A DNA stretch of 64,000 nucleotides from an uncultured Gammaproteobacteria bacterium (GTDB taxonomy: Bacteria; Patescibacteriota; Microgenomatia; Levybacterales; GWA1-39-11), in NCBI GenBank assembly GCA_964409875.1, contig CAYPEN010000002.1, positions 142,607 to 206,606 on the forward strand, written 5' to 3'. Made by a program: the position numbers and the translations under genes. Positions 7,613 to 41,825 of this stretch are shown piece by piece. Position 1 is the first letter of the stretch; each line of letters starts with the position of its first letter. Below the pieces are notes generated by a model that worked only from the letters and a program-made list of their open reading frames with translations, was not told the origin of the DNA and made no database searches.

Positions 7613-8293
7613 TTATTTTTTCGGCAACAAACGCACAATGTCCTCCGTCACTTTTTCAACCGGTTGATTACCATTAATTTTTGTAATCACATCGGCAAAG
7701 CGCTCATTGATGTATTCGTAACCCGTCAACACTTTTGCAATTTTATCCTTGTCCTCATAAATTTCCTTGACATCATCTTTTGCGCTCAACCTTTTCCACG
7801 ACGCCTCCAGAGGAATAGCAAGGTAAAAAGTAAAATCAGGGACGGTAAACTGGTGGTACATCGACAAAATTGACTGTGTCATAAGGAGAAGATCGGCGTC
7901 CTTTTTGTCATATGTTCCACCCGTCCTATCCAAAATGCCGTACACAATTGCTGACCAAAAACACCGGTCTGTTAACACTACTTTTCCCTCAGAGAGTGCC
8001 GGAAGCACAACATCATGGTGATTTGCAGCTCTATCGGCAGAAAAAAGGTACTGTAAGGACACAGAAGGAAGTTTCACTTCTCCCAACAACACCTTGTGCA
8101 CAATATCTCCGATAACCCCACTTTTTCTTGGCTCACGAGTCACAACAACTTCCCGTCCATTATCTTTAAAATACTGGGTAAGTCTTTCAAGTTGGGTTGT
8201 TTTTCCGCACCCATCAATTCCTTCAAGCGCAATGTAGAGTCCGGGAGAAGTGTTTTTCTTAAGTGTTATCTCAAAATTAACGGGGTATTTCAT
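7613..8293 (-). CDS. tmk: Thymidylate kinase
   Basis: P-loop 'LEGIDGCGKTTQ' and a DR(C/Y) motif. Confidence 0.9.
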   Translation of the reverse strand: MKYPVNFEITLKKNTSPGLYIALEGIDGCGKTTQLERLTQYFKDNGREVVVTREPRKSGVIGDIVHKVLLGEVKLPSVSLQYLFSADRAANHHDVVLPALSEGKVVLTDRCFWSAIVYGILDRTGGTYDKKDADLLLMTQSILSMYHQFTVPDFTFYLAIPLEASWKRLSAKDDVKEIYEDKDKIAKVLTGYEYINERFADVITKINGNQPVEKVTEDIVRLLPKK

Positions 8294-29461: not shown

Positions 29462-30243
29462 AAAGAGATGTGCTCTGCCTCAATTGTATCATCCAAAAGT
29501 TTTTTTGCGACCGTTTCAAAATTTATCTTGTCCCCGGTTGTAAAAAACATATCATTTTGCTTTTGCGTTGAAAGCAAGCGCTCGTTTTCCAAAACTTGCT
29601 TAAGCCTTCTTGCCACCGCACCCCCCGAATCGGCAATAAGAACTTCTTTCCCTACTATCGACTGAATCTGGCTTTTTATGAACGGATAATGGGTACACCC
29701 AAGCGCAATTGCATCGACATTTTTTGTGAGTAGAGGTCTTAGCTCATCATTCAGAATATCCATGACCTCTTCCGAATCGGTTTCCCCTTTTTCAACGAGA
29801 TCTTCAAGGTGTGTCTCGCCAATTGTAAACACTGTTCTATCGCTTGCAAACTTTCTAATTAACTCGTTCAAATATTCACTTTTTGAGGTAGCAGGAGTGG
29901 CAAAAACAGCAACTATACCTGTCTTCGTGGCCTCAGAAACAGTTTTTATTACCGGCACAACTCCAAGAATCGGAAAGTCGAATTCTCTCCTCATTTCCTC
30001 AATTGTCATTACCGTTGCAGTATTGCAGGCAATAACAACCGCTTTAATGTTTTTATTCGTAAAAAACTTAATGATTTTTTCCGCTCTTTGAGTCAATTCT
30101 TCTTTTGTTTTAGAACCGTACGGCATAAATGCCTGATCGGCAACATATATGGTGGTTTCATGAGGCAAAATGCGGTGAATTTCTGACAAAACGGAAAGTC
30201 CGCCGACTCCCGAATCAAAAACTCCAATGGGATTATTATTCAT
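29458..30243 (-). CDS. murI: Glutamate racemase
   Basis: 'IGVFDSGVGGLSVL' and 'ACNTATV'. Confidence 0.9.
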   Translation of the reverse strand: MNNNPIGVFDSGVGGLSVLSEIHRILPHETTIYVADQAFMPYGSKTKEELTQRAEKIIKFFTNKNIKAVVIACNTATVMTIEEMRREFDFPILGVVPVIKTVSEATKTGIVAVFATPATSKSEYLNELIRKFASDRTVFTIGETHLEDLVEKGETDSEEVMDILNDELRPLLTKNVDAIALGCTHYPFIKSQIQSIVGKEVLIADSGGAVARRLKQVLENERLLSTQKQNDMFFTTGDKINFETVAKKLLDDTIEAEHISL

Positions 30244-30298
30244 TAACAGAGTGTGGGTAAGATTTGCCTATTCATGAAATGTCATACTACTAAATTTA

Positions 30299-30499
30299 GT
30301 AGCTGGAGTGGGGTTCGAACCCACGACTTTTGCGTTACATTAACAATTTGCAGATTTTGTAGCTGGAGTGGGGTTCGAACCCACGACCTCAGCGTTATGA
30401 ATGCTGTGCTCGAACCAGCCGAGCTCTCCAGCCGTCTACTTACTGCAAATTGTTAATGAGCTCCGAATGCTGTGCTCGAACCAGCCGAGCTCTCCAGCC
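30299..30499 (-). repeat. Nested partial duplications of the tRNA-Met gene with a 16-nt inverted repeat
   Basis: 30465-30499 repeats the 5' 35 nt of the tRNA (30399-30433) exactly. 30301-30327 repeats its 3' 27 nt (30361-30387) exactly. 30338-30353 'cattaacaatttgcag' is the reverse complement of 30443-30458. Confidence 0.8.
30360..30433 (-). tRNA. tRNA-Met (anticodon CAT; could also be a lysidine-modified tRNA-Ile2)
   Basis: Hand-folded cloverleaf. Acceptor GGCTGGA/TCCAGCT, D-stem GCTC/GAGC, anticodon loop TTCATAA, T-arm GTGGG-TTCGAAC-CCCAC. No encoded CCA. There is an A31-C39 mismatch in the anticodon stem. Confidence 0.7.
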
Positions 30500-30579
30500 A
30501 TGAATTTCAATGGTGTTTATTGTACCATTTTGAACTCATAAATTCAAAATGTCGGACTCACTTTGAGGCAAAAAAATTA

Positions 30580-30666
30580 TGGCGGAGGAGGCGGGATTCG
30601 AACCCGCGAGTGCTTGCGCACGCATACTTTCCAAGCATGTGGAATGGACCACTATCCGACTCCTCC
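30580..30666 (-). tRNA. tRNA-Ser (anticodon GGA), type II with long variable arm, CCA encoded
   Basis: Acceptor GGAGGAG/CTCCTCC, anticodon stem CATGC/GTATG with loop TTGGAAA, variable arm CGTGC-GCAA-GCAC, T-arm GCGGG-TTCGAAT-CCCGC, 3' GCCA. Confidence 0.75.
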
Positions 30667-30740
30667 GAGCAAAGCGAGGAGGTGCTGGAGAACAATCTTG
30701 TTTGCAAGATTTTCATCCGACTCCTCCAAATTACGTCTAG

Positions 30741-31172
30741 CTATTTTACCAGGGATTGAATAATTGGCAAAGCTTTCTCAAAAACCGTCTTATCACTTTT
30801 AAATGTCAGCTTCTCTAAAACTTTCTCTACCTCAATCCATTGGACATCTTCCATTTCAAAATCGTGCTTAGTTATATCCCCACTTTTGTATTTCATTACA
30901 AAATAATATACGGTTTTTTTCACTTTTGCGCCCTCAAAATTGTACCAATACGTGATAGGCTCCAATGCTTCCAAAATTTCCCCTACGGCACCCGTTTCCT
31001 CCTCTACCTCGCGAAGCGCCGTTTCCTCTTTTTTTTCACCGTGAATTTTGTCTCCAATAAGTCCCTTTGGAAAACCCCATCCATGGTGGTAGGAATGTTG
31101 ACACAGCAATATTTCAATTCCCTTTTGGGATTTTCTAAAGACAACTCCCCCGGCAGAAAATTCAAATTTCAT
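30741..31172 (-). CDS. NUDIX hydrolase
   Basis: Nudix box 'GEKKEETALREVEEETGA'. The start is trimmed to 'MKFEFSAGG' so it does not overlap tRNA-Arg. Confidence 0.75.
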   Translation of the reverse strand: MKFEFSAGGVVFRKSQKGIEILLCQHSYHHGWGFPKGLIGDKIHGEKKEETALREVEEETGAVGEILEALEPITYWYNFEGAKVKKTVYYFVMKYKSGDITKHDFEMEDVQWIEVEKVLEKLTFKSDKTVFEKALPIIQSLVK

Positions 31173-31181
31173 ACTTTTTTG

Positions 31182-31258
31182 TGGCGCACCCGAGTGGGGT
31201 CGAACCACCAACCGCAAGATCCGGAATCTTGTACTCTATCCATTGAGCTACGGGTGCC
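31182..31258 (-). tRNA. tRNA-Arg (anticodon CCG), CCA encoded
   Basis: Anticodon stem CAAGA/TCTTG with loop TTCCGGA, T-arm GGTGG-TTCGACC-CCACT, 3' end GCGCCA. Confidence 0.8.
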
Positions 31259-31298
31259 TATCTTTCATGCAACCGCAAGATTTACTTGCAGATTCATG

Positions 31299-31383
31299 CG
31301 GAGGGTACAGGATTTGAACCTGTGTAGGGATTGCTCCCTCGGGATTTCGAGTCCCGCGCAATTGGCCACTATGCGAACCCTCC
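31299..31383 (-). tRNA. tRNA-Ser (anticodon CGA), type II
   Basis: Acceptor GGAGGGT/ACCCTCC, 3-bp D-stem, anticodon stem CGGGA/TCCCG with loop CTCGAAA, long variable arm, T-arm ACAGG-TTCAAAT-CCTGT. Confidence 0.75.
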
Positions 31384-31459
31384 GGAACAAACGTGGGGGT
31401 GGATTGCAGAATATTCTTAAAAAGAATTACATGTGAACCCTCCTCCGAACCTGTGTGTG

Positions 31460-31532
31460 CGCGCCCAAGTGGGGTCGAACCACCAACCTCAGGATCCGCA
31501 ATCCTGTGCTCTATCCATTAAGCTATGGGCGC
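31460..31532 (-). tRNA. tRNA-Arg (anticodon read as GCG)
   Basis: Acceptor GCGCCCA/TGGGCGC, anticodon stem CAGGA/TCCTG with loop TTGCGGA, T-arm GGTGG-TTCGACC-CCACT. Closely related to the Arg-CCG gene. Confidence 0.7.
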
Positions 31533-31608
31533 ACGATAAATCAACGAACCCAGTGATTATATCAACTTTGAGGCAAAAAACCTACCATTTGAAAAAGCCA
31601 AGCTCCGC

Positions 31609-32160
31609 TTAACGCTCGAGAGGAAAGTTACGAGCCAACCATTCACCGCTTTTTTCCATAAAGGTTGGTTTGACTACTTCACGAAATGGGATGTATCCTA
31701 TCAACACACGTCTGATGTGATCGACTGGGACATCACCCAACGAGATACGCAACTCTCCAGGAAACATGCTTTTTGCCCTAACAATTAAAACATCCACTCC
31801 GTCTATTTTCTTGAAATAAAAATCATACAACTCGTCCCAGATAAAAAAATGGTCTTCAACTTTGATCCCCTGTGTGCTTATTCGGTAATGAAAATTTTGA
31901 GGTGGGACTACCGCAAGCGCAATTGAGAAGAAATAGAGCGTGCCTACAACAAACATTAAAAGGTACTCTGAAAAAATAAAAAGAATTACCTCTATAAGAA
32001 ATACGATAAGAAGTCCCGTAAAATAGAATTCTTTCCCTTTTTTCCGAAACGGTCTTCCTGGAGCCGACCAAGAAATGAGTGTTTTAACATCGGGATAAGT
32101 GTGTCTGGCAGGATGATGCTCCATAGATACACTATGGCATATATTGAGGGTAAAAATCAA
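31609..32160 (-). CDS. Membrane protein with two TM helices and C-terminal bacterial PH-like domain (YdbS-like)
   Basis: Topology and size fit. No catalytic motif. Confidence 0.4.
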   Translation of the reverse strand: MIFTLNICHSVSMEHHPARHTYPDVKTLISWSAPGRPFRKKGKEFYFTGLLIVFLIEVILFIFSEYLLMFVVGTLYFFSIALAVVPPQNFHYRISTQGIKVEDHFFIWDELYDFYFKKIDGVDVLIVRAKSMFPGELRISLGDVPVDHIRRVLIGYIPFREVVKPTFMEKSGEWLARNFPLER

Positions 32161-32175
32161 GCTGAACTGAAGAAT

Positions 32176-33042
32176 TTAAAGCTCAAGAAGTGAAGTACTT
32201 TCTCCGTTTTTGTGTTCTTTTACGTATTGCAGATAGCGTTCGGTTGATGAAAGTCGTTTGTGTCCCAGTACTTTGGAGAGAAAAACTAAAGATACTCCCT
32301 GCTTAAGGTGATGTGCTACAAATGTATGCCTCAAATCATTTATCTTTACATTTTCAATTCCTGCTTTTTTAAAATATCTTTCGACAGCATCTCGAATGTT
32401 TCTTACAAGAAATGGCCTACCGGTCTTTGTTACAAACACATGGGTGTCCTCCGTATTTGCACGGGTTTCCATATATCGCTTTAACGCTTCCTTTGCACGT
32501 CTATTCAGAGGGACCTCGCGTGATTCATGCCCTTCATATGGCCTTATATGAAGCGAATTTTCAGAAACATCTTCTACGCGAAGGTTGGCAAGTTCTCCGA
32601 TGCGAATACCAGTTTGTAGAAGAACTTCAATAATCGCATAGATTCTGGAATCGACAGATGCTGCATCTCTTAACGCACGGTATTCAAGAGGCGACAGCAT
32701 TCGAGGAGGATTAAGCTCATATTTTGGATGCTCAACAAGCAACGACGGGTCGTCCGTTACATATTCATTTACTTTTAAATAACGATAGAATGTCCGAGTT
32801 GAGTTAAGTTTTCGAGATAAAGATTTGGGGGTATAGCCTTCGTCTTTTAACTTTGTTAAGAACGCTTGAATATCCGTTCCGTTCACTTCATGGATGTTGT
32901 TTTTCTGAAGCGCTTCAAGAAATTCAATTAATTGCTCGACATCCTTGCCATATGCTAATATTGTCGCGGACGCTCTATTTTTAGATTTTAAAAAGTCCTG
33001 GAACTTTCCATGTGCGTCCCTAAGACGTAACTCATTTGCCAT
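32176..33042 (-). CDS. Tyrosine recombinase (XerC/XerD/phage-integrase family)
   Basis: N-terminal SAM-like core-binding domain. Catalytic box 'LRHTFVAHHLKQGVSL...LGHKRLSSTERYLQY' (R..H..R..Y). Confidence 0.85.
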   Translation of the reverse strand: MANELRLRDAHGKFQDFLKSKNRASATILAYGKDVEQLIEFLEALQKNNIHEVNGTDIQAFLTKLKDEGYTPKSLSRKLNSTRTFYRYLKVNEYVTDDPSLLVEHPKYELNPPRMLSPLEYRALRDAASVDSRIYAIIEVLLQTGIRIGELANLRVEDVSENSLHIRPYEGHESREVPLNRRAKEALKRYMETRANTEDTHVFVTKTGRPFLVRNIRDAVERYFKKAGIENVKINDLRHTFVAHHLKQGVSLVFLSKVLGHKRLSSTERYLQYVKEHKNGESTSLLEL

Positions 33043-33110
33043 AAATTTTTAATTAATGAGGTAAGCATGCCTTATCTCTAAATTAATTTGAGCCTATAAT
33101 ATCAGTAAAC

Positions 33111-33458
33111 ATGCGCTTTGTCAACACAAAATCAATCTTACTCCTAGGAATTGTACTCATTTTGCTATGGGTAATTAAAAATATCGCAACCTCAATTATT
33201 ACCTTAAGACAAAATAGCCATATAGTAACAACTCTTAAAGACCAGGAAGAGGAAGCAAAAAGAAAGAAACAGCTACTCCAACAACAACTCCATGTTGTTA
33301 ATACGCCTGAATTTATTGAAAGCCAGGCAAGAGAAAAATTAGGAATGGTAAAACCGGGAGAGCACATAGTACTTGCTCCTCCCCCGTCTCCAGCTCCACA
33401 AAAAACGAATAACGATACAGCCTCTAACTGGGAACGATGGTGGAATCTATTTTTTTAA
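33111..33458 (+). CDS. FtsB/DivIC-like septum formation initiator
   Basis: N-terminal TM, coiled coil, and the conserved 'PEFIESQAREKLGMVKPGE' motif. Confidence 0.6.
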   Translation: MRFVNTKSILLLGIVLILLWVIKNIATSIITLRQNSHIVTTLKDQEEEAKRKKQLLQQQLHVVNTPEFIESQAREKLGMVKPGEHIVLAPPPSPAPQKTNNDTASNWERWWNLFF

Positions 33459-33600
33459 AATTTGGTGCGGAGTAAGCAGGGCTTGCTCACGCAACACCCA
33501 TTTCATTCGTGTTGCGGGGCCTAGAAGAAATACGAACATACTTTCTAACCCGTAACGATTCAGTCATTATACCAAATTTAGCTTAATTATTCTTCTTTAA

Positions 33601-34788
33601 TTGCATTTAAAAAAGTCCTATACTGAGAACATGCCAACTGTAGCAATACTCAAGCAGAATATTGAGGACATTTTAAAACAGCAAGGCTATACTTTAAGCA
33701 CGAATGGTAGTTTTATTCTTCCTTCAAGCGATAGAGAATCTTGGAGACAGGCGCATTATATAGCAAGAACAGAACGCCTGTTAGCAAAAGAGAATTTTAT
33801 TCTAAAAGGTAGCAGAATAGCTCAAAAGTATTTTCTTGATGGGAAAGATTTAAATATTGAAAAAATTGAGCCTAAATTGATTGAAGTTGAAGCAGAAACT
33901 GAATGGGAAGATTTATTTAAGTGGTGGAACTTAACCTGGTGGAGCCTACCTTATGAGAAAGCTTACGGCAGACAAATGAGATTTGTTGTATGGGATAAAT
34001 ACCACAATGCGCCTATTGGTCTCATCGGCTTACAAAGCCCAATACTTAGTTGGAGTGTTAGGGATAAATTTCTAAATATTCCATATGAAACAAGAGATTA
34101 TTGGGTCAATCAATCTTTAAGTGCACAAAGAATTGGAGCACTACCCCCTTATAACGACATTCTCGGAGGCAAGCTTGTTTCACTCCTTATGACATCAGAC
34201 ACAGTCAGAAAAGCCTTTAATAAAAAGTATAAAAACAAGGCCACATTGTTAAAAAATAGAGAACTACCATCAAGGTTGCTGTTTATTACCACAACAGGAG
34301 CATATGGGAAAAGTAGTGTTTATCAACGCTTAAAATTTAACCAAGAGGTAATTGCAAAGTTTATTGGATTTACTCAAGGAAGTGGAACTTTTCACATTCC
34401 AAACGCATTGTTTGAAGACCTGGTAAAGTATATGCAAAAGAGAGGCTATCCTGTAGGAAGAGGCTATGGCAATGGACCGTCTCGCAAGCTTAGAATTATT
34501 GACCAAGCACTTCAGCTTTTAGGATTTGCAAACGGAGCAACTCATGGCATTAAGAGAGCAGTTTATTTATTCCCCATGGTAAGAAATTTAGATAACGTAA
34601 TACAACAAGACAAAAGGCCTCTATGGGCAAAAAGAAGCGAAGAAGATTTAACTGAATTCTGGAAAAATAGATGGGCGTTTCCACGAGCTGAAAGAAATCC
34701 TGCATATAAAACGTATGTTAGCAAGGACTTTTTAAGTGAAATTATGTATAATCTAGAGCAATATAGGGCGTTAAGTCCTACATTGTAA
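33601..34788 (+). CDS. Island protein of unknown function (395 aa), first gene of the HerA/NurA operon
   Basis: Long uninterrupted ORF with a Trp-rich segment 'WEDLFKWWNLTWWSLPYEKAYGRQMRFVVWDK'. No motif I can assign. A 3-nt gap separates it from the next gene. Confidence 0.5.
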   Translation: MHLKKSYTENMPTVAILKQNIEDILKQQGYTLSTNGSFILPSSDRESWRQAHYIARTERLLAKENFILKGSRIAQKYFLDGKDLNIEKIEPKLIEVEAETEWEDLFKWWNLTWWSLPYEKAYGRQMRFVVWDKYHNAPIGLIGLQSPILSWSVRDKFLNIPYETRDYWVNQSLSAQRIGALPPYNDILGGKLVSLLMTSDTVRKAFNKKYKNKATLLKNRELPSRLLFITTTGAYGKSSVYQRLKFNQEVIAKFIGFTQGSGTFHIPNALFEDLVKYMQKRGYPVGRGYGNGPSRKLRIIDQALQLLGFANGATHGIKRAVYLFPMVRNLDNVIQQDKRPLWAKRSEEDLTEFWKNRWAFPRAERNPAYKTYVSKDFLSEIMYNLEQYRALSPTL

Positions 34789-34791
34789 AGG

Positions 34792-35931
34792 ATGAACGAT
34801 TCCTCAAATAATGATACATTCGGGGATTTACCTCAAGCATTAGTAGAAGAACTTCTTGGTAAAAGTCAGGAAGTAGGCAATGCATTGTATTCTTCATTTA
34901 GTAATATTCAAAATCAGAAGAAAAAATTCAGAGAAGACTTGGAAAAGGGAAATATTCTAAAAAGAGAGGCTGACTATAGCGTATCTGTACCGCCTACGAC
35001 TTGTGGAATTGATGGCGCCTATGCAAAGGAGGAGCTTTTATCAGTAGATTTGCTGGCAGCAGCCGCCGTCGCTCTTGAAGGAATAACCCCACCGTCTGAA
35101 ACAAGATTTTGGGAGGGCCCTCATCACCAGGTAATCATACAGGAAGAAAAACACAATCCCGACACTAACACAATCTTACGGGCAATAATGATAGGAATGG
35201 AACAACAGCTTGCGGAAAAAGCACCTCACGATGTTGTATTCATAGACGGTTCTTTAACTACGCCGTTAATTTTTTTCAATCAAGCAATTAATAAAGCTGA
35301 AGAATCAGATGATAATAGAGAACTTTCTATCTCTAAAAAACTTTTTGAGGTTTTACCTGAATCCTTAGCTTCATATCGTAAAGTTTTAGGCAATTCTCGA
35401 ACTGATAAGCTCTGGGTAGGGATGCCAAAATATACCACAAACAGAGAGATTGGGCGAAGTATGAAATGGGACCAGTCCTATGATGATAGAGCCTTGTTAA
35501 CTCTACTGTTAGCACCCGGTGAATTAACGACTCCACTCCCTTTCCAAAAACCATCTCAACCATGGCATTTAACTTACAAGCCGTGCGAGAAAGATATACA
35601 AAGCATTAAGGACTCTCTGGGCGGGTTGCGAGTTATTTATTATAGACCTCATGTGTGGACTCCTGCTCTTAGAATAGAGTTAAACTCTCACACTGCAGCC
35701 AATGAGTATCAGCTTGGCATGGTTCTGCAAGCTGTTAAATTTCAATGTGCTACTGCAGGAATAATTGAACCTTATCCTTTGTATATAGCAGATAGAATGG
35801 TTAAGTCCTTAGGCACTGGTCTACCAGCATTTAGACAGGTGGTTACTCGACAGATGGCAGAAGATTATGATGGCGATATTGGTGAAGTGTTTTTTACTAT
35901 GCATGGATATAGGACAGAACGTTCAAAATAG
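34792..35931 (+). CDS. NurA-like nuclease (RNase H-fold) candidate
   Basis: Two 'DG' catalytic-type motifs, 'CGIDGAYA' and 'VVFIDGSLTTP', with an acidic 'IIQEEKH' stretch between them, spaced as in NurA. It is operonic with a HerA ATPase. Confidence 0.5.
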   Translation: MNDSSNNDTFGDLPQALVEELLGKSQEVGNALYSSFSNIQNQKKKFREDLEKGNILKREADYSVSVPPTTCGIDGAYAKEELLSVDLLAAAAVALEGITPPSETRFWEGPHHQVIIQEEKHNPDTNTILRAIMIGMEQQLAEKAPHDVVFIDGSLTTPLIFFNQAINKAEESDDNRELSISKKLFEVLPESLASYRKVLGNSRTDKLWVGMPKYTTNREIGRSMKWDQSYDDRALLTLLLAPGELTTPLPFQKPSQPWHLTYKPCEKDIQSIKDSLGGLRVIYYRPHVWTPALRIELNSHTAANEYQLGMVLQAVKFQCATAGIIEPYPLYIADRMVKSLGTGLPAFRQVVTRQMAEDYDGDIGEVFFTMHGYRTERSK

Positions 35932-35960
35932 ATGTATAATACAAAAAATAAAGATGAATT

Positions 35961-37736
35961 ATGAAAGATGATAAAAAAAATATAGAAGAAGTCCTTAAGG
36001 ATGCTGAGCGAATTGGAGTTATAGGCTCACCCTCCTCTACAAGTAAGCTTACGCTGGATATTTTAGGAAGTGCTGTAAACAAAAAACTTGTAGGAGAACT
36101 TGGTTTATTTTCATACACACAAGAAGGTAGCAAGAATTATGCAATGGGTCAAATTACTGAAGTTGAGCTTCATAACATTTGGCACCAAGACCCAACAATA
36201 AGAAGCCTTATAAGACAAAAAGGGAGCATTAACCCTGTAAGCGAACGCCAGGATACCCATATTGGACAGATGACAATTAGCGCAGTTTTTCAATCGGCGG
36301 GAGATAGTATTTTTGAACCAAGCATTTTAGGTACAATTCCCGCAACAGGAACTCCAATAAATATCGTGTCTGACGACATACTAAACACCATTCTTTCTGC
36401 ATATAAAGACGAAATCTTTTATTTAGGGAATGTGTATGGCTCTAAACCAAAGCTACCTATGTGGTTTAAGCATTTTGATTCTGGAAAAGGTGGCGCAGGA
36501 GAAGCCTATCATCTTGGTATATTTGGGAAAACTGGCTCTGGTAAGTCTGTTTTGGCAAAGATGACAATAATGGGATACGCAAGACATAAGCAAATGGGAA
36601 TATTCATTCTAGACCCTCAGGGTGAATTTTCAAAAGGACTTAAAGATGGTGTGACCTCAGACACAATGAAAACAATTCTATGCAAAGAGACATTAGAAAA
36701 AATGGAAAGAGAATATGTAGTATATGACCTTAACAACATTGCTCTCAGTAGGTGGTCGCTTTTTGCTCAATTTTTAATAGAATTTAACTTTTTCTTTGAG
36801 CTCGGAATTAAATCCTCAGATTATCAAAAAATAGTTGCTGAAGACATAGAAGATTTTTGTAGAAGCAATTCAGCTTTAAAGCTATCTCAGCTCGATAATA
36901 ATGCATTAGCAAAAGTATTGGAACATTTAGATGCAAATATTCATCGTGTATACGCTGGAAAGCAATCAGATGGTGCAAATAGAGTGAAAGAATACATTGC
37001 AGAATGCCTTGAAGCTATAAAGAATAATACAGATAATAGGTTAGTTAATATTTGGACAAAAGTAGGTAAGCTTTTTGATAATAGTGGAGGCAAGAAAAAT
37101 CCAAAAGACATTGTAAACGAGGCAATAAAAGGAGGTACTAGCACGAGAAAACTTGTCTCGATTGACCTTTCTCAAAAACCATCTGACATTTCACCTTATG
37201 TATGGGACGAAAAAATAAAACCACTTATCATTGATAACTTTCTGAGCGACTTAGTACAAGCAGCAGAATACGCGTACAGAGATGATAAAAGCTTAAATAC
37301 TCTTGTTGTAATTGATGAAGCCCATAGACTTGCTCCAAGAGGAAGTTTAGAAAATGAGAAAAAAGAAAAAATACGCTCTACCCTTGTAGATGCGGTAAGA
37401 ACAACAAGAAAATATGGATTGGGCTGGTTGTTTATCAGCCAAACACTATCTAGTTTAGATAAGGACATAATTGAACAATTAAGAATCAACTTTTTTGGAT
37501 TTGGTTTGTCTATGGGTACAGAATTCCAGTCTTTAAGAGAGCTTGCTGGTGGCGACCCTGCTGCACTAAAATTGTATCAATCTTTTAGAGACCCACATAG
37601 CGCATTCGATAACAATCTACGCGAGTATGCGTTTATGTCATTGGGACCAGTTTCACCCCTCTCTTTTGCAGGCACACCCCTATTCCTATCCGTATTTACA
37701 TCCCCTGAGGTTTTCTTAAAGGAGAATAATCTATAA
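35961..37736 (+). CDS. HerA-family hexameric ATPase/helicase
   Basis: N-terminal HAS-barrel-like region. 'HLGIFGKTGSGKSVL' is the HerA HxxIxGxTGSGKS motif. Walker B 'VVIDEAHRLAP'. 'GLGWLFISQTLSSLD' is sensor-like. Confidence 0.8.
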   Translation: MKDDKKNIEEVLKDAERIGVIGSPSSTSKLTLDILGSAVNKKLVGELGLFSYTQEGSKNYAMGQITEVELHNIWHQDPTIRSLIRQKGSINPVSERQDTHIGQMTISAVFQSAGDSIFEPSILGTIPATGTPINIVSDDILNTILSAYKDEIFYLGNVYGSKPKLPMWFKHFDSGKGGAGEAYHLGIFGKTGSGKSVLAKMTIMGYARHKQMGIFILDPQGEFSKGLKDGVTSDTMKTILCKETLEKMEREYVVYDLNNIALSRWSLFAQFLIEFNFFFELGIKSSDYQKIVAEDIEDFCRSNSALKLSQLDNNALAKVLEHLDANIHRVYAGKQSDGANRVKEYIAECLEAIKNNTDNRLVNIWTKVGKLFDNSGGKKNPKDIVNEAIKGGTSTRKLVSIDLSQKPSDISPYVWDEKIKPLIIDNFLSDLVQAAEYAYRDDKSLNTLVVIDEAHRLAPRGSLENEKKEKIRSTLVDAVRTTRKYGLGWLFISQTLSSLDKDIIEQLRINFFGFGLSMGTEFQSLRELAGGDPAALKLYQSFRDPHSAFDNNLREYAFMSLGPVSPLSFAGTPLFLSVFTSPEVFLKENNL

Positions 37737-37955
37737 TTATTCAATTAAATCACCAATGTTCACGCCTAGTGCAACAGAAATTTTATATATAGTTGACAAT
37801 TTAGGGTCTCGGTGACCCATCTCAATCTCATTAACTGTAGTTAAATCCATTCCAATATCTCCTGCAAGGTCTTCTTGCGACAGTTTATTTTTATTTCTTA
37901 ATTCACGAACCTTATTGCCAAACTCCCTTTTTACAGCCTCATCTGAGATTGTCAT
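37737..37955 (-). CDS. XRE-family helix-turn-helix transcriptional regulator
   Basis: 'LRNKNKLSQEDLAGDIGMDLTTVNEIEMGHRDPKLSTIYKISVALGVNIGDL' is a typical Cro/C1 HTH. Confidence 0.8.
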   Translation of the reverse strand: MTISDEAVKREFGNKVRELRNKNKLSQEDLAGDIGMDLTTVNEIEMGHRDPKLSTIYKISVALGVNIGDLIE

Positions 37956-37965
37956 ATATTGTGTT

Positions 37966-38009
37966 TATGCCAAATTTCCTATAAAATGTCTTTGGCATAC
38001 ATGCCAAAT
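37966..38009. promoter_or_regulatory. Operator-like palindrome TATGCCAAA-N16-TTTGGCATA plus a third half-site ATGCCAAAT
   Basis: Perfect 9-bp inverted repeat at 37966-37974 / 37991-37999 and a third copy at 38001-38009. They sit in the divergent intergenic region between the XRE HTH gene and the zinc-ribbon gene. Confidence 0.5.
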
Positions 38010-38014
38010 AATGA

Positions 38015-38392
38015 ATGATGTTTTGCAATAATTGCGGTAAGGAACTAAGTGCAGAAAGCAGATTTTGTTCGAACTGTGGAACATCTATCCCTATAACAGA
38101 TAACTACAAGAAAAAATCCTCGAATATTACATTTGAAGCAATAAAACTAACTTCTAAAATCACCCTTGCGCCTGTCACCATCCCCTTTAGTATTCTGAAG
38201 TGGAGTCTCGGAATCAGAACTTTAAAGTGTCCTCGCTGCAGCAATAAAAAAATAAATAAAATGAAACCAGGCTGGGCAGAAAGTGCGATACCTGGTTTTG
38301 CACTTTTAGCTTTAGGGCCTTTAGGTCTTTTAGCAGGGCGTCCAAAAACCTTGTTCGTTTGCAAGCAATGCGGTTTCTCATGGGAAAGATAA
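38015..38392 (+). CDS. Double zinc-ribbon membrane protein
   Basis: 'CNNCGKEL...CSNCG' and 'CPRCS...CKQCG' Cys4 pairs flank a hydrophobic segment. Confidence 0.5.
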   Translation: MMFCNNCGKELSAESRFCSNCGTSIPITDNYKKKSSNITFEAIKLTSKITLAPVTIPFSILKWSLGIRTLKCPRCSNKKINKMKPGWAESAIPGFALLALGPLGLLAGRPKTLFVCKQCGFSWER

Positions 38393-38627
38393 GTAAGCTT
38401 GAGTAAGGGTTTTCATTTGTAATTTTTCCTATTTTTTTAGACTGAACTTTTGAAAAACCATTATGTGGCCAAAAACTCATTACGTCTATGCTAAAGCACT
38501 TGCATAATAGATTCTAATTGGAGGGGAATATTTAACCGTCGAATGTATATTTTCTATATAAAATACCATTCATAAACGCGCTTTTTTTAAGTTTTTCCTT
38601 AAAAACTGATATAGTTTATATATAGTA

Positions 38628-38656
38628 TTGACACAAATGTCTAATTGACTTTAAAT
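38628..38656 (+). promoter_or_regulatory. Sigma70-like promoter TTGACA-N17-TTAAAT
   Basis: -35 at 38628-38633 and -10 at 38651-38656, in an ORF-free AT-rich region. Confidence 0.35.
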
Positions 38657-38662
38657 CGATAA

Positions 38663-38766
38663 GATTTAAAATATACTTGTAAGCACGTCTCGGCGCCTAT
38701 CCATTGGAGCTGAGGACTTATCCAAAAGTTCAGAGACTGTGAGCGAAAGCTCGCGGTCTTTTTTTA
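38663..38766 (+). ncRNA. Candidate ~100-nt small RNA or 5' leader ending in an intrinsic terminator
   Basis: No ORF on either strand. A promoter lies upstream. The 3' end carries a GAGAC-...GAGC-GAAA-GCTC...-GTCT stem-loop followed by a T7 run. Confidence 0.3.
38733..38766 (+). terminator. Rho-independent terminator-like hairpin (GNRA tetraloop) + U-tract
   Basis: 'gagactgtgagcgaaagctcgcggtcttttttt'. Confidence 0.5.
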
Positions 38767-38773
38767 TGGCTTT

Positions 38774-39052
38774 ATGAATGATGAATTAGACATATTCGAA
38801 ACAAAGGATAAACAATTTACTCCATATCTGTTTATCCAACCTGACGTTAAGTTTTTAGGAACAAGAATCCAAGATTCCACTGTATTCTTTCGCTTCTCTC
38901 CTTCTCTCAGATGTAAAACCCTCTTAAATCTGTTTATCAGTAAGCAAGCACCACCTGTTCAAGGAAAGAGTTTGTTGGATGCGCTTGAAAGCTACAGAGA
39001 CTTAATTTTTGAGATGAAGATGAAGATGAAGGAAAAACATTATGAACCATGA
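38774..39052 (+). CDS. Hypothetical small protein (island cassette)
   Basis: 92 aa. Its stop overlaps the next ORF's start. Confidence 0.35.
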   Translation: MNDELDIFETKDKQFTPYLFIQPDVKFLGTRIQDSTVFFRFSPSLRCKTLLNLFISKQAPPVQGKSLLDALESYRDLIFEMKMKMKEKHYEP

Positions 39053-39503
39053 TTATTTAACAAAACAGGAACAAATTGAAATAAACCAAAGTCTTGCAGA
39101 ATCTTACAATTACAAAGATTCATATACAAAGGGTGATGACTTTGTCTTAGAAGGTGGAAATGATACTCGTAGATTAAAAGTAAATAGAGAGTTAACCCAA
39201 AGAAAAATAGAAGCTATTAATGCATTAAAAGAGTGTCGTGCCAGTACACCACCAGAAATAGTGTCAGATTTACTTTCACAGCTTTTTGAAAACTCTGATA
39301 CTGAACCAGGCTGGTGGCTTTACGTTGCCCAGCATTGGCCACCTAATCCCATAAATCGAGTAATAAAACTCATGCTCAAACTTCATCAAGGGAAATGGAT
39401 AACTTTCAGAGACCCAGCGAAATACTTCACATCCGAAATAAAACATAGGAAGCAAAGAATGATTTTTCAGAAAAAAAGAAGGGAGAAGCATGAAAAAGCT
39501 TAA
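39042..39503 (+). CDS. Hypothetical protein (island cassette)
   Basis: 153 aa with a basic C-terminus. Overlapping start/stop couples it to its neighbours. Confidence 0.4.
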   Translation: MNHDYLTKQEQIEINQSLAESYNYKDSYTKGDDFVLEGGNDTRRLKVNRELTQRKIEAINALKECRASTPPEIVSDLLSQLFENSDTEPGWWLYVAQHWPPNPINRVIKLMLKLHQGKWITFRDPAKYFTSEIKHRKQRMIFQKKRREKHEKA

Positions 39504-39753
39504 AAACTACACCCTTAAAGTCTACGAAAATGATGAAGTTGGTATGGTAGTGCGTACTCACTCAAAACGCTTAATTCTCACACGTTTACGCTCAATAAAC
39601 TGGACAAACAAGGCAATTAAAACCTACTTCAGAGTGTCTTATGGCAAGAAGAATGATACTCATGGAAAACTCAGCACTTTCTACAACGATGGTGATTTTT
39701 ATAACAAAGAAGACTTGGATTGGGCTTTTGAAGCTTTTGACTATGAAGATTGA
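39490..39753 (+). CDS. Hypothetical small protein (island cassette)
   Basis: 87 aa. Overlaps the upstream gene by 14 nt. Confidence 0.35.
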   Translation: MKKLKNYTLKVYENDEVGMVVRTHSKRLILTRLRSINWTNKAIKTYFRVSYGKKNDTHGKLSTFYNDGDFYNKEDLDWAFEAFDYED

Positions 39754-39928
39754 CGGATTACACCATCTAGATAATAAAGCTATCGATGAGTTTACTCAGC
39801 TCTATTACAAGGAGTATGGAATTAAACTCAATAAACAAGAGGCTACGGAGCTTGGAAACAGATTTATACGTTTTATGAGAGCTATATATGCGGATGCCCT
39901 ACCAAAGTCAAAAAGGGTTGACAAGTAG
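39743..39928 (+). CDS. Hypothetical small protein (island cassette)
   Basis: The start is trimmed to the internal Met 'MKIDGLHHLD' (ATGAAGATTGA overlaps the upstream stop). The longer ORF 39641.. would overlap the upstream gene by 113 nt in another frame. Confidence 0.3.
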   Translation: MKIDGLHHLDNKAIDEFTQLYYKEYGIKLNKQEATELGNRFIRFMRAIYADALPKSKRVDK

Positions 39929-39964
39929 AGTAAGGAAGTCCTACGATGAAGCTATCTTGAGGCT

Positions 39965-41698
39965 ATGAACGAACAAAAAAATATAAAATACTTTGGTTAT
40001 ATACGTAAAAGCTCTGAGGACAATCGCGAACGACAAGCGGCATCCCTTCCTGAGCAGAGGTATGCCTTAGATTTATTAAAAACTAAGCTTAATCTGAAAA
40101 TTGTAGACGTACTTGATGAATCTAGAACAGCTCATGAACCAGGAAGACCCACTTTCAACTCCATGTTAGAGAAGATATCAAACGGTGAAGCCAACGCGAT
40201 TCTCACATGGCACCCTAATAGGTTATCTCGAAACCCTGTTGATACAGGTCACTTGCTTTATCTCATGGACGCAGGAAAACTAGTTGAAATCCGCACTCCT
40301 TCACGTGCCTATCATAATACGCCTGAGGATAAGTTTATGTTGGGACTTGAATTTGGTATTAGCAAGAAAGACTCGGACGACAAATCCATTGTTGTAGAAC
40401 GTGGGCTCGAAGGGAAAGCAAGGAAAGGATGGAGACCTGGAGTTGCTCCTCAAGGCTATCTAAATGATAAGGGAACCGAAAGTGGAGAACGTAAAATATA
40501 CTCTGACAACGACCGCCTACCACATATCAAAAACATATTCTCGCTGTTTTACAATGGAACACCTGTAATTGAAATTCATCGAATTGCCCACGAAGATTGG
40601 CATTACCTTACGCGTCAACATAAAAGAATGGGAGGTAAACCACTTTCAATAAGCATGATATATTCAATACTGACAAACCCATTTTACTGTGGGAAATTCG
40701 AATACCCTCTTGGAAGCGGAAAATGGTATGAAGGAGCTCATGAGAAGGTGGTAAATGAAGAAGTATTCAGTGAAATACAAGTTAAATTAGGACGTAGAAG
40801 CCCTTACAAGGTGAAGCATAACGGTTTTGCCTACAACGGGAGCGCAATTCGTTGTGGAGATTGCGGTTCAAGCATTGTTGCTGAACAAAAAAAGCAGTGC
40901 ATTTGTTCTAACTGTAAAACTAAATTTTCTATATCACATAAAAATCCAGACACCTGTATTAAATGTGGTTCTTTAATCGAGAGCATGTCAAACCCTAAGT
41001 TGCTTCATTACATCTATTATCGATGTGGTAGAAAAAAGAATCCAAAATGCCTACAAAAAGCAGTACAACTAACAGAACTTGAGAGGCAAATTGACAAAAA
41101 ACTAACTCAAATTGAAATTTCTCCAGTGTTTGTAGACTGGGCCATAAAACAAATTCAAAAAATGAATGAGAGTAATAAAGATTTTGAAGAAGCAACATTT
41201 AAAGGATTAAAGGCAGCGCACGATAAGTGCAGAATAAAACTTAATAATTTATTACAACTAAAGATATCACCAGAAAACGTAAATGGTAGTCTACTATCAG
41301 ACTCAGAATACAAAACCCAAAAAGAAACTTTGGAATCTGAGCTTAAGATTATTGAAAAACAACTTGAAGACACTGACAATCAAATGCTTCAATCAAATAG
41401 CGACACAGAAAAGGCTTTTAATTTTGTTTCCAGAGCTAGAGAACGATTTTCTCTGCCAGATATCAAGATTAAGCGTGATATATTCTTGGGATTAGGGTTG
41501 CACCTAACACTTAAGGACAAAATAATCGATTTTGACAGTCCAAAGTATATTAAATCTCTTGAAAAAATGAAGAAAGAAGCTCCAATTATTGCAGAGAGGG
41601 TCGCACCTGAAAAAGAGATTGAATTGAAAGCAAAAATGGAGGAAAAGTTTGCGACAATTCCAAGTGTGTTGCGGAGTAAGGAGTTGAACCTTATCTAG
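39965..41698 (+). CDS. Large serine recombinase (resolvase N-domain + recombinase domain + zinc ribbon + coiled coil)
   Basis: Catalytic N-terminus 'YFGYIRKSSEDNRERQAASLPEQ', a recombinase domain, a Cys-rich zinc-ribbon ('CGDCGSS...CSNCKTKF...CIKCGS') and a long coiled-coil C-terminus. Confidence 0.9.
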   Translation: MNEQKNIKYFGYIRKSSEDNRERQAASLPEQRYALDLLKTKLNLKIVDVLDESRTAHEPGRPTFNSMLEKISNGEANAILTWHPNRLSRNPVDTGHLLYLMDAGKLVEIRTPSRAYHNTPEDKFMLGLEFGISKKDSDDKSIVVERGLEGKARKGWRPGVAPQGYLNDKGTESGERKIYSDNDRLPHIKNIFSLFYNGTPVIEIHRIAHEDWHYLTRQHKRMGGKPLSISMIYSILTNPFYCGKFEYPLGSGKWYEGAHEKVVNEEVFSEIQVKLGRRSPYKVKHNGFAYNGSAIRCGDCGSSIVAEQKKQCICSNCKTKFSISHKNPDTCIKCGSLIESMSNPKLLHYIYYRCGRKKNPKCLQKAVQLTELERQIDKKLTQIEISPVFVDWAIKQIQKMNESNKDFEEATFKGLKAAHDKCRIKLNNLLQLKISPENVNGSLLSDSEYKTQKETLESELKIIEKQLEDTDNQMLQSNSDTEKAFNFVSRARERFSLPDIKIKRDIFLGLGLHLTLKDKIIDFDSPKYIKSLEKMKKEAPIIAERVAPEKEIELKAKMEEKFATIPSVLRSKELNLI

Positions 41699-41825
41699 GA
41701 GATTATGAGCCTCCTGTGCAGCCGTACACTACCCCGCGATACAGACAAATAGTATACTTCAAATTAGCTTCAAATGCAACCACAAGACTTGTTTTTCACA
41801 CGATTTTCTAGTAGAATACAATCTT

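Follow-up and report, generated by a model that had tools for sequence, protein, structure and literature searches.

Hairpin-paired copies of tRNA gene ends in a variable tRNA cluster of Candidatus Levyibacteriota: possible remains of repeated recombination within tRNA genes

tRNA genes are usually the most stable genes of a genome. Integrases leave the 3' ends of tRNA genes behind as scars, and in the natural transformation of Acinetobacter and Streptococcus, homology-facilitated illegitimate recombination anchors one end in a conserved stretch and joins the other at a microhomology, yielding foreign DNA together with a displaced or duplicated piece of the resident sequence. For prokaryotes, partial tRNA genes left by the integration of genetic elements have been described as attL/attR duplications (PMC9897764). 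Template-switch (quasipalindrome) mutations are reported to create and maintain hairpins (PMC8794818, PMC7202029). In phage T4, segB is a free-standing GIY-YIG homing endonuclease gene within a tRNA cluster (PMC2988022), and in Patescibacteria group I introns have been found in the anticodon loop of tRNAs at site 35/36 (10.1101/2025.07.03.662931). Here we describe a tRNA gene cluster in a 64,000-nucleotide stretch of DNA (contig CAYPEN010000002.1; hereafter the window), a chromosomal piece from a small-genome bacterium of the Candidate Phyla Radiation, assigned to Candidatus Levyibacteriota, the name that the closest public loci bear. Several tRNA genes of this cluster are accompanied by short copies of their own ends (stubs) or by dead halves of the same gene, and we consider it an even chance that these are displaced tRNA-gene end-pieces left by repeated recombination inside the genes of the cluster. 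Neither upstream 5' stubs nor nested tRNA genes were found described in the literature searched.

The first 13 nucleotides (nt) of tRNA-Ser(GGA) (30580-30666, minus strand; ARAGORN and Rfam), ATCCGACTCCTCC, were present exactly twice, at 30654-30666 in the gene and at 30715-30727, a spacing of 61 nt. The upstream copy forms the 5' stub (GGAGGAGTCGGAT, minus strand) of a module at 30667-30727 (minus strand) that also holds an AATCTTG/CAAGATT hairpin (30694-30711) and a complementary stretch, CTCC..CCTCCTC; orthologous modules were found in L002, L009, L014, L027 and L044, where L-numbers (L001, L002 and so on) denote the related loci compared and W the window's own locus. This repeat and its hairpin had been recognized correctly in an earlier reading of the window made from the sequence alone. 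The same sequence-only reading had also detected a copy of the 5' end of tRNA-Ser(CGA) (31298-31383, minus strand; ARAGORN and Rfam), placing it about 8 nt from its actual position: the stub, GGAGGGTTCACAT, lies at 31431-31443 on the minus strand, matches the gene at 12/13 nt and has a spacing of 60 nt. It is part of a spacer with several tRNA-Ser(CGA) relics (31384-31458, minus strand; orthologous modules in L002, L003 and L010), which further contains a 10-nt piece of the tRNA-Ser(CGA) T arm (31447-31456), a conserved ATTCTT/AAGAAT hairpin (31413-31427), the palindrome AGAATATTCT (31408-31417) and a decayed complement of the stub, TGCAATCC. Three features had gone unmentioned, namely the T-arm piece, the nested tRNA-Met described below and a 12-nt copy of positions 38-49 of tRNA-Arg(CCG) (31182-31257, minus strand; ARAGORN and Rfam). 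This last copy, at 31270-31281 in the leader of the gene (31258-31297, minus strand), is located 61 nt upstream of its source and takes part in the hairpin CTGCAAG-TAAAT-CTTGCGG. The whole window contains four exact direct repeats that are 12 nt or longer with copies no more than 120 nt apart, against 0.95 expected, and every one of them falls in 30.29-31.28 kb. The repeats are real and far beyond chance, and they are one instance of a lineage-wide pattern. An assembly artefact was rejected, since the repeats fit into the length of a single read, an independent assembly (L001) was 100% identical over 30470-33517 and orthologous modules occur in assemblies of different studies. A coding reading of the stub, in which GGAGG and ATG would resemble a ribosome site and start codon, was also rejected, the open reading frame (ORF) not being conserved in L002 or L009.

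The nested tRNA-Met gene borders the interval flagged in the sequence-only reading, lying just beyond it. At 30294-30499, all on the minus strand, a dead 5' half of tRNA-Met (30465-30499, identical at 35/35 nt) is followed by a helix arm (30443-30458), the intact tRNA-Met(CAT) (30359-30433, called by ARAGORN), the second helix arm (30338-30353) and a dead 3' half (30294-30337, identical at 40/44 nt and with its anticodon stem broken). The two arms form a perfect 16-bp leader-trailer helix that encloses the working gene. The same nest was found in L002, L010 and L014, and L014 showed two generations of tRNA-Met 3' halves. The sequence of the helix differs among these four loci with the pairing kept, 9/15 pairs having changed on both sides. 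The outer halves fail to rebuild a foldable tRNA: in W the anticodon stem would be CGCAA against CAGCA, in L002 and L010 the T arm has been replaced, and in L014 there are hairpins in the D loop. A split or intron-containing functional tRNA was rejected on account of these broken stems, and a group I intron gave no match at E <=1 in 29800-32300 or in five related loci. A viral scan for the tRNA-Met sequence returned 0 matches and hence no sign of a phage carrying a tRNA-Met cassette.

A scan with the protein of the neighboring tyrosine recombinase gene was used to collect 21 loci of related species (75-97% identical), and the 94 tRNA genes of the window and these species were each compared with their own 120-nt flanks, counting matches of at least 10 nt and using shuffles as a control. 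Same-strand matches numbered 36, compared with 0.61 in the shuffles, and 29 of these placed the gene's own end on its own side (5' end upstream or 3' end downstream), for which 0.015 were expected. Inverted matches were not enriched in these flanks (1 versus 0.46). The stubs were 42-113 nt from their source, all on the same strand, and at their inner ends they stop in or next to one of three loops (D, anticodon or T). In the 29 modules, many of them orthologous so that they may represent 15-18 independent events rather than 29, the fold pairs the stub with a complementary part of the insert; the mean fold z score was -2.4, and 17/29 were below -2. A scan of metagenomes for the tRNA-Ser(GGA) sequence added only 2 loci, one with a clean and one with a rearranged cluster.

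The hairpins that hold the stubs have been kept while their sequences changed. The tRNA-Ser(GGA) module of W has a fold energy of -22 kcal/mol (z -3.6). Its counterparts in L002, L009 and L014 have similar flanks, and the inner stems of the four, in the order W, L002, L009, L014, are AATCTTG/CAAGATT, ATTTTGA/TCAAAAT, ATCTTTT/AAAGAT and CTTTTG/CAAAAG; 6/17 predicted pairs were altered on both sides among these four sequences. The tRNA-Ser(CGA) module was less well kept, its copy in W is decaying with several pairs broken, and the tRNA-Ser(GGA) stub of L027 is decaying as well. A stub identical to a tRNA end would be a hazard in the precursor, and we infer that pairing it away has been selected. 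The suggestion of the sequence-only reading that the repeats are structured leaders for processing was half right: compensatory changes preserve the hairpins, but many relatives lack entire modules, which therefore cannot be essential. With Rfam at a permissive threshold, applied to the window region and five related loci, tRNAs were the sole matches in the cluster, and none of the modules matched a ribozyme, an intron or a small RNA family.

Modules the size of a tRNA (73-80 nt) were also observed on the 3' side of tRNA-Ser genes (L002 8834-8913; L016 7803-7875 and 8617-8689). These have GATGAGAAG ... CCCC-N3-GGGGAAATCC in common, each has arms that complement its own gene at the 3' end, and they had no Rfam match; at least the L016 tRNA-Ser(CGA) 3' module has a multi-branched fold. 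In these 3' modules GATGAGAAG...GAAA resembles a hammerhead, a reading that was discarded because the conserved CU is missing.

The comparison with relatives showed a locus that is fixed in its order and variable in its spacers. Gene order is kept in all 21 relatives, most of which also keep the same tRNAs; the spacers between the same tRNAs run from 4 nt to 3.9 kb, tRNA-Arg(CCG) (missing from the cluster in several relatives) and the NUDIX gene are variably present, and some clusters contain inversions. The clusters of L011, L012, L019 and L023 had no tRNA-end stub at all, and the spacers of L011, L019 and L023 were also tight. The structured-leader module was absent in L006, L011, L012, L016, L019, L020, L022 and L023 although the gene was present. 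Between L009 and L011, which have 100% identical Xer-like recombinases, the difference is a clean 60-nt insertion/deletion (indel) bounded by a 13-nt direct repeat, the resident upstream flank adjoining the distal copy. Strain L044 carries the tRNA-Ser(GGA) stub module where L041 and L047 have 101 nt of unrelated sequence, the rest of the cluster being >99% identical, and contigs encoding an identical 171-amino acid (aa) protein beside the cluster had the stub swapped for unrelated sequence or the tRNA block inverted. Because some relatives are without all stubs, and strains with identical flanking proteins differ by clean indels, the stubs are dispensable. The block tRNA-Arg(GCG)-tRNA-Ser(CGA)-tRNA-Arg(CCG), with its promoter, was found in both orientations beside an identical upstream protein (L031, L033 and L035-L038 versus L040 and L032), with differing downstream genes. 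Simple inversion by the neighboring recombinase is not supported, in view of these differing downstream genes, and no flanking inverted repeats were seen around the inverted blocks in the contigs compared.

Other rearrangements were noted at these loci. Inverted blocks were also present at L015, L022, L024 and L026, that of L022 being a single inverted tRNA-Ser(GGA). In L032, an apparent pseudogene at positions 35-200 after the homologue of ORF 31609-32160 is a tRNA-Ser(CGA) without its 5' acceptor strand and with an altered anticodon loop, and the tRNA-Arg(GCG) of the same locus differs from that of L040 at several positions of the T-stem/acceptor region, ARAGORN still calling a gene. Tandem duplications of 9-34 nt and AT-rich repeat tracts were found in cluster spacers of L007 (3307-3401), L013 (7790-7860) and L012 (~8100-8148), and likewise upstream of tRNA-Ser(GGA) in L010 and L013.

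Single tRNA genes were found to be far more divergent than their surroundings, differing by 12-21% where the adjacent Xer proteins were 97-100% identical and where other tRNAs of the same cluster, in the same species pairs, were up to 100% identical. Thus L009 and L011 (Xer 100%) share only 84% identity in tRNA-Arg(GCG), W and L002 (Xer 97%) 88% in both tRNA-Met and tRNA-Arg(GCG), and L009 and L010 (Xer 98%) 79% in tRNA-Ser(CGA). Relics of sufficient length to be typed represent the older allele. In L002 and L010, the tRNA-Met halves on the outside equal the allele of W, their inner genes being different; in L014, the outer 5' half and first 3' half correspond to the functional allele of L006, with a second and older 3' half behind them. 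L014 also retains, beside a very different working gene, a 3' half of tRNA-Arg(GCG) equal to the allele functional in L022, and L027 has a decayed tRNA-Met 5' half upstream of a very different tRNA-Met allele with its own promoter-like sequence. In L025, tRNA-Arg(CCG) is followed by a second, degenerate tRNA-Ser(CGA)-like copy (2404-2540), in front of which stands the leader found after the stub in other species. This leader is joined behind tRNA-Arg(CCG) at the microhomology CATGAAATT, a sequence with which the NUDIX gene of relatives begins. The allele mismatches, the older-allele relics and the L025 junction are the main reason for preferring incoming or relocated tRNA-bearing DNA over a purely local duplication. 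The comparisons show the pattern of the stubs, that the stubs can be dispensed with, that tRNA alleles have been replaced, and the hairpins.

We therefore favor the following sequence of events. Single tRNA genes, each with its own leader or trailer, would often be replaced, duplicated or moved in this lineage, with only tRNA sequences conserved well enough to serve as anchors when diverged genomes recombine. One junction, made by anchored or illegitimate recombination, would fall inside the resident gene, usually in or beside a loop, and the incoming gene would be complete. The resident 5' end would be left upstream, or the 3' end downstream, on the same strand, 30-100 nt off and beside the resident flank. 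Such a stub would be co-transcribed with the gene and could compete for the acceptor strand, and those surviving would be the ones locked in a local hairpin with a complement, a mutual constraint that would lead to compensatory changes under selection for sequestration. The whole module could then be lost in one step through deletion between the direct repeats. Several observations weigh against this account. Simple anchored recombination does not predict a complementary stretch beside each stub, and the 33-nt insertion in the tRNA-Met promoter (30529-30561) has the same direct-plus-inverted signature, pointing to a local replication or repair process. Stub modules persist across species with Xer proteins only 84% identical, which needs selection or homogenization, and the outer tRNA-Met 5' half is identical in W, L002 and L010 though the adjacent linkers differ, making it too conserved for plain debris. 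The two tRNA-Ser stubs of W match their own genes at 13/13 and 12/13 nt, so that resident copy and foreign DNA cannot be discerned there, and the orthology of many modules brings the independent events down to about 15-18.

A local replication or repair error involving no foreign DNA is an alternative we regard as rather improbable. Template switching or fold-back synthesis at the stem-loops of highly transcribed tRNA genes would, in a single event, copy a neighboring stretch both directly and inverted, would thereby make stub, complement and filler together and would later keep the stems perfect, a capacity reported in PMC8794818. It would explain why every stub is paired with a complementary stretch, why break points are in or beside loops, why the promoter at 30529-30561 has the same signature, and the tandem duplications in the spacers of L007, L012 and L013; in some 3' modules (the island end in W; L016) the complement spans the unpaired discriminator and tail, which indicates an inverted DNA copy and not a decayed acceptor strand. 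However, in the two events read in detail (the L008 module and the W promoter) only ~8-9 nt of the insert is an inverted local copy and the rest has no local source, identity ends at the tRNA end without duplication of the flanks except in L008, and relics of an allele other than the working gene are left unexplained. Either selection or template switching could have kept the stems. The compensatory changes (6/17 pairs in the tRNA-Ser(GGA) module, 9/15 in the tRNA-Met helix) would fit a function for the modules as RNA parts of the precursors, be it as processing helices, as insulators of tRNA folding or as small tRNA-half or minihelix RNA genes, and this could account for modules persisting between the distant relatives W and L014 and for the identity of the outer tRNA-Met 5' half in W, L002 and L010. 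We nonetheless think such a function quite unlikely, since modules are absent in many relatives and polymorphic within species, the tRNA-Ser(CGA) module of W and the tRNA-Ser(GGA) module of L027 are decaying, the outer tRNA-Met halves have broken stems and Rfam gave no match. A more speculative and unlikely reading sees tRNA genes as self-replacing cassettes, in which an incoming gene with its own leader-trailer helix or promoter would land in a loop of its resident homologue, kill it and take over. Stubs and nested halves would be what remains, and in L014 three generations can be seen. Such replacement could be driven by a nuclease acting on tRNA genes, or by an arms race in which swapping alleles pays off against toxins that cleave tRNAs, and the hairpin-locked stubs could be a necessary form of damage control or small tRNA-half RNAs.

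The explanation first offered for the repeats, an integration hot spot with accumulated scars next to a tyrosine recombinase, was partly sustained: the cluster is a hot spot at which sequence has been inserted, deleted and rearranged, and the partial copies of tRNAs are indeed scars, whereas the agent, the kind of scar and the role assigned to a 16-mer repeat were wrong. We judge it decidedly improbable that the stubs are scars of site-specific integration by integrase elements whose interiors have since been deleted. A true case of such integration does exist 2 kb away, where an 8.2-kb serine-recombinase island separates tRNA-fMet from its 3' fragment; relatives have one to three small modules, GGAGCAA-N6-9-TTACTCCGCAAC, after tRNA-fMet, and the 3' fragments downstream of Arg and Ser genes fit integrase geometry. 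Presence/absence polymorphism bounded by repeats, as expected of scars, was likewise observed (L009/L011; L044/L041). Both flagged tRNA-Ser repeats, however, are positions 1-13 of their genes and lie upstream, and in the window a 3' end downstream of its gene, as an attachment-site scar would have it, was seen only for tRNA-fMet, at 33465-33475. In none of the loci examined was a 5' stub separated from its gene by an integrase, a kilobase-scale element or an interval above ~0.1 kb (those of the window are 47-48 nt), the fMet module is already at the same place in island-free relatives, and the adjacent recombinase is Xer-like and conserved in place. Inserts that are miniature palindromic mobile elements, resembling miniature inverted-repeat transposable elements (MITE) or repetitive extragenic palindromic (REP) elements, that target tRNA genes and are perhaps moved in trans by a nuclease such as small GIY-YIG proteins, would agree with the GIY-YIG-only ORFs beside tRNA genes in L006, L013, L014 and L019, with the precedent of phage T4 segB (PMC2988022) and with the motif common to the 3' modules of two L016 tRNA-Ser genes and one in L002. 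This is very unlikely, and a MITE/REP-like family was rejected, because an all-against-all comparison found insert similarity only between orthologous modules, inserts of different tRNAs being unlike, and the duplicated target varies over 10-35 nt. Moreover, no GIY-YIG gene is present in the window, an ordinary terminator hairpin fits the recurring GTAAGC-NNN-GCTTGC core as well, and the GCAAGCAAAGCTTGC core had 13 matches in 269 kb, some of them ordinary terminators. An integron or CRISPR-like array was rejected too, as the repeat length varies and the matching genes are absent; a single CRISPR repeat match, within the NUDIX gene, scored 28 bits and so fell short of the gathering score of 42.

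The tyrosine recombinase gene is present at 32176-33042 (minus strand), as had been reported. It encodes a protein of ~290 aa matching Pfam SAM_1 (PF02899) and Phage_integrase (PF00589), i.e., the N-terminal SAM-like and catalytic domains of the Xer architecture. Its best NCBIfam matches were XerD and XerC (TIGR02225, TIGR02224) at ~170 bits over the full length, below the equivalog cut-offs. In the 21 loci and in L025-L050 the gene occupies the same place with respect to tRNA-fMet on its upstream side and the tRNA cluster on its downstream side, DivIC-recombinase-ORF183 was the order wherever genes were called, and none of the repeat-bounded segments in the locus contains the recombinase gene. 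An exact-protein look-up returned the same contig only. The gene order being the same in all 21 relatives, the gene is not part of a mobile element, and its proposed role as the agent of the scars falls away: it is a fixed neighbor, and nothing links it to the stubs. It may still have a part in the block inversions. The larger spacers of relatives carry NUDIX, malic enzyme, membrane protein and GIY-YIG genes as cargo, with no integrase or mobile-element genes.

The island near tRNA-fMet spans ~33476-41667, between tRNA-fMet (41668-41738) and its 3' fragment (33465-33475), an older fragment being at 33511-33519. Its cargo includes DruA, NurA-like and HerA-like genes along with that of a large serine recombinase (39965-41698). 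Most of the 21 relatives have tRNA-fMet and the Xer-like recombinase gene ~0.5 kb apart (L013 and L014, 1.7-2.6 kb), and an island-size gap was found in none of them. GIY-YIG-only ORFs of 84-93 aa lie beside tRNA genes at L006 4219-4473, L013 3556-3819, L014 4409-4690 and L019 5349-5606. That of L014 is located between tRNA-fMet and a 13-nt copy of the fMet 3' end, and that of L006 fills a spacer only 4-6 nt long in other species. These ORFs are a lead for the source of DNA breaks.

The 16-mer, TTTTTTGCCTCAAAGT on the minus strand, occurs exactly at 30560-30575 and 31565-31580 with four tRNAs and the NUDIX gene in between, as the sequence-only reading had stated; its interpretation as the bracket of an inserted block did not hold. 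Copy 1 (31565-31580) sits just after the terminator-like hairpin of the upstream gene (31597-31613), and abuts the extended -10 element, TGATATAAT (31556-31564), of the putative promoter for tRNA-Arg(GCG) (31459-31532, minus strand; ARAGORN, Rfam 66 bits), tRNA-Ser(CGA), tRNA-Arg(CCG) and the NUDIX gene. A motif consisting of a T-run, CCTCAAA, N2-5 and TAnAAT was found before tRNA-Arg(GCG) in 10 relatives, with further contig-end copies in L005 and L017, and the 16-mer motif also precedes tRNA-Met in 4 loci and the TrpRS gene at ~28093. In the tRNA-Met unit, whose promoter-like TTGAAT-17-TACAAT with an upstream TG lies at 30519-30547 (minus strand), copy 2 (30560-30575, minus strand) makes up the upstream half of the promoter motif. 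In L002 the motif abuts the -10, and in W the two are separated by the 33-nt insertion with its 9-bp hairpin (CATTTTGAA/TTCAAAATG), which is absent in L002. By count the 16-mer pair is unremarkable (the window has 5 such pairs, shuffles 1.2). At <=3 mismatches there were 5 matches in the 64-kb window against 3.0 expected, so the motif is not common window-wide. On this evidence the 16-mer appears to be a promoter-proximal motif common to two tRNA transcription units, whatever lies between them, and not the edge of an inserted block. A promoter scan also gave a promoter-like site, TTGCCA-16-TGGTAAAAT, in the 3' end of the NUDIX gene (30743-30770, minus strand), which reads into the tRNA-Ser(GGA) stub and gene and is conserved in L014.

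The overall order on the minus strand is the recombinase gene, a gene with no recognized domain, tRNA-Arg(GCG), tRNA-Ser(CGA), tRNA-Arg(CCG), the NUDIX gene, tRNA-Ser(GGA) and tRNA-Met, followed by MurI, MurD and TrpRS; DivIC precedes the recombinase gene and is itself on the plus strand. The gene between the recombinase gene and the cluster (31609-32160, minus strand) is lineage specific and conserved, with 1288 homologues and no Pfam or NCBIfam match. The NUDIX hydrolase gene (30741-31175, minus strand; Pfam PF00293, 9e-20) is absent in L009-L011 and L027. These families were assigned with Rfam, Pfam and NCBIfam, and tRNAs were called with ARAGORN. A glmS ribozyme match at L016 4031-4230 (minus strand; 43.6 bits, above the gathering score) is unrelated to the stubs.

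The cluster records its own history as stubs and nested halves. If our explanation is correct, it would offer a sequence-level view of tRNA gene exchange between relatives, of the positions of the junctions and of how cells cope with decoy tRNA pieces in precursors. Stubs of this kind may mislead tRNA annotation or pass for phage attachment sites, and a recombinase gene beside tRNAs is no evidence of a mobile element.

Compared with the partial tRNAs derived from integration (PMC9897764), the locus is alike in having a direct same-strand copy of a tRNA end beside the intact gene, in being variable and in including a real case, the fMet island, within the window. It is unlike them in that 5' ends are found upstream as often as 3' ends downstream, the distances are 30-100 nt with no element or integrase, and the stubs are hairpin paired. 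Homology-facilitated illegitimate recombination, a candidate mechanism here, fits the replaced alleles and the L025 junction but does not by itself explain the complementary stretches and the loop-located break points. With template-switch mutations this locus shares the inverted neighbor copies, the resulting perfect stems and their staying perfect as the sequence changes, whereas template switching alone would account neither for direct duplications that stop at tRNA ends nor for relics belonging to other alleles. The phage T4 segB system (PMC2988022) resembles relatives L006, L013, L014 and L019 in its small GIY-YIG gene between tRNA genes and in a possible bias of tRNA-region inheritance by breaks and repair; it differs in that the ORFs of the relatives are a putative catalytic domain alone and the window has no such ORF. 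The group I introns of Patescibacteria (10.1101/2025.07.03.662931) come from the same phylum, and the dead tRNA-Met is likewise interrupted in the anticodon loop, next to the 35/36 site. Here, however, the interrupting piece is 121 nt long, has no intron signal and holds a complete tRNA, and the gene it interrupts has decayed.

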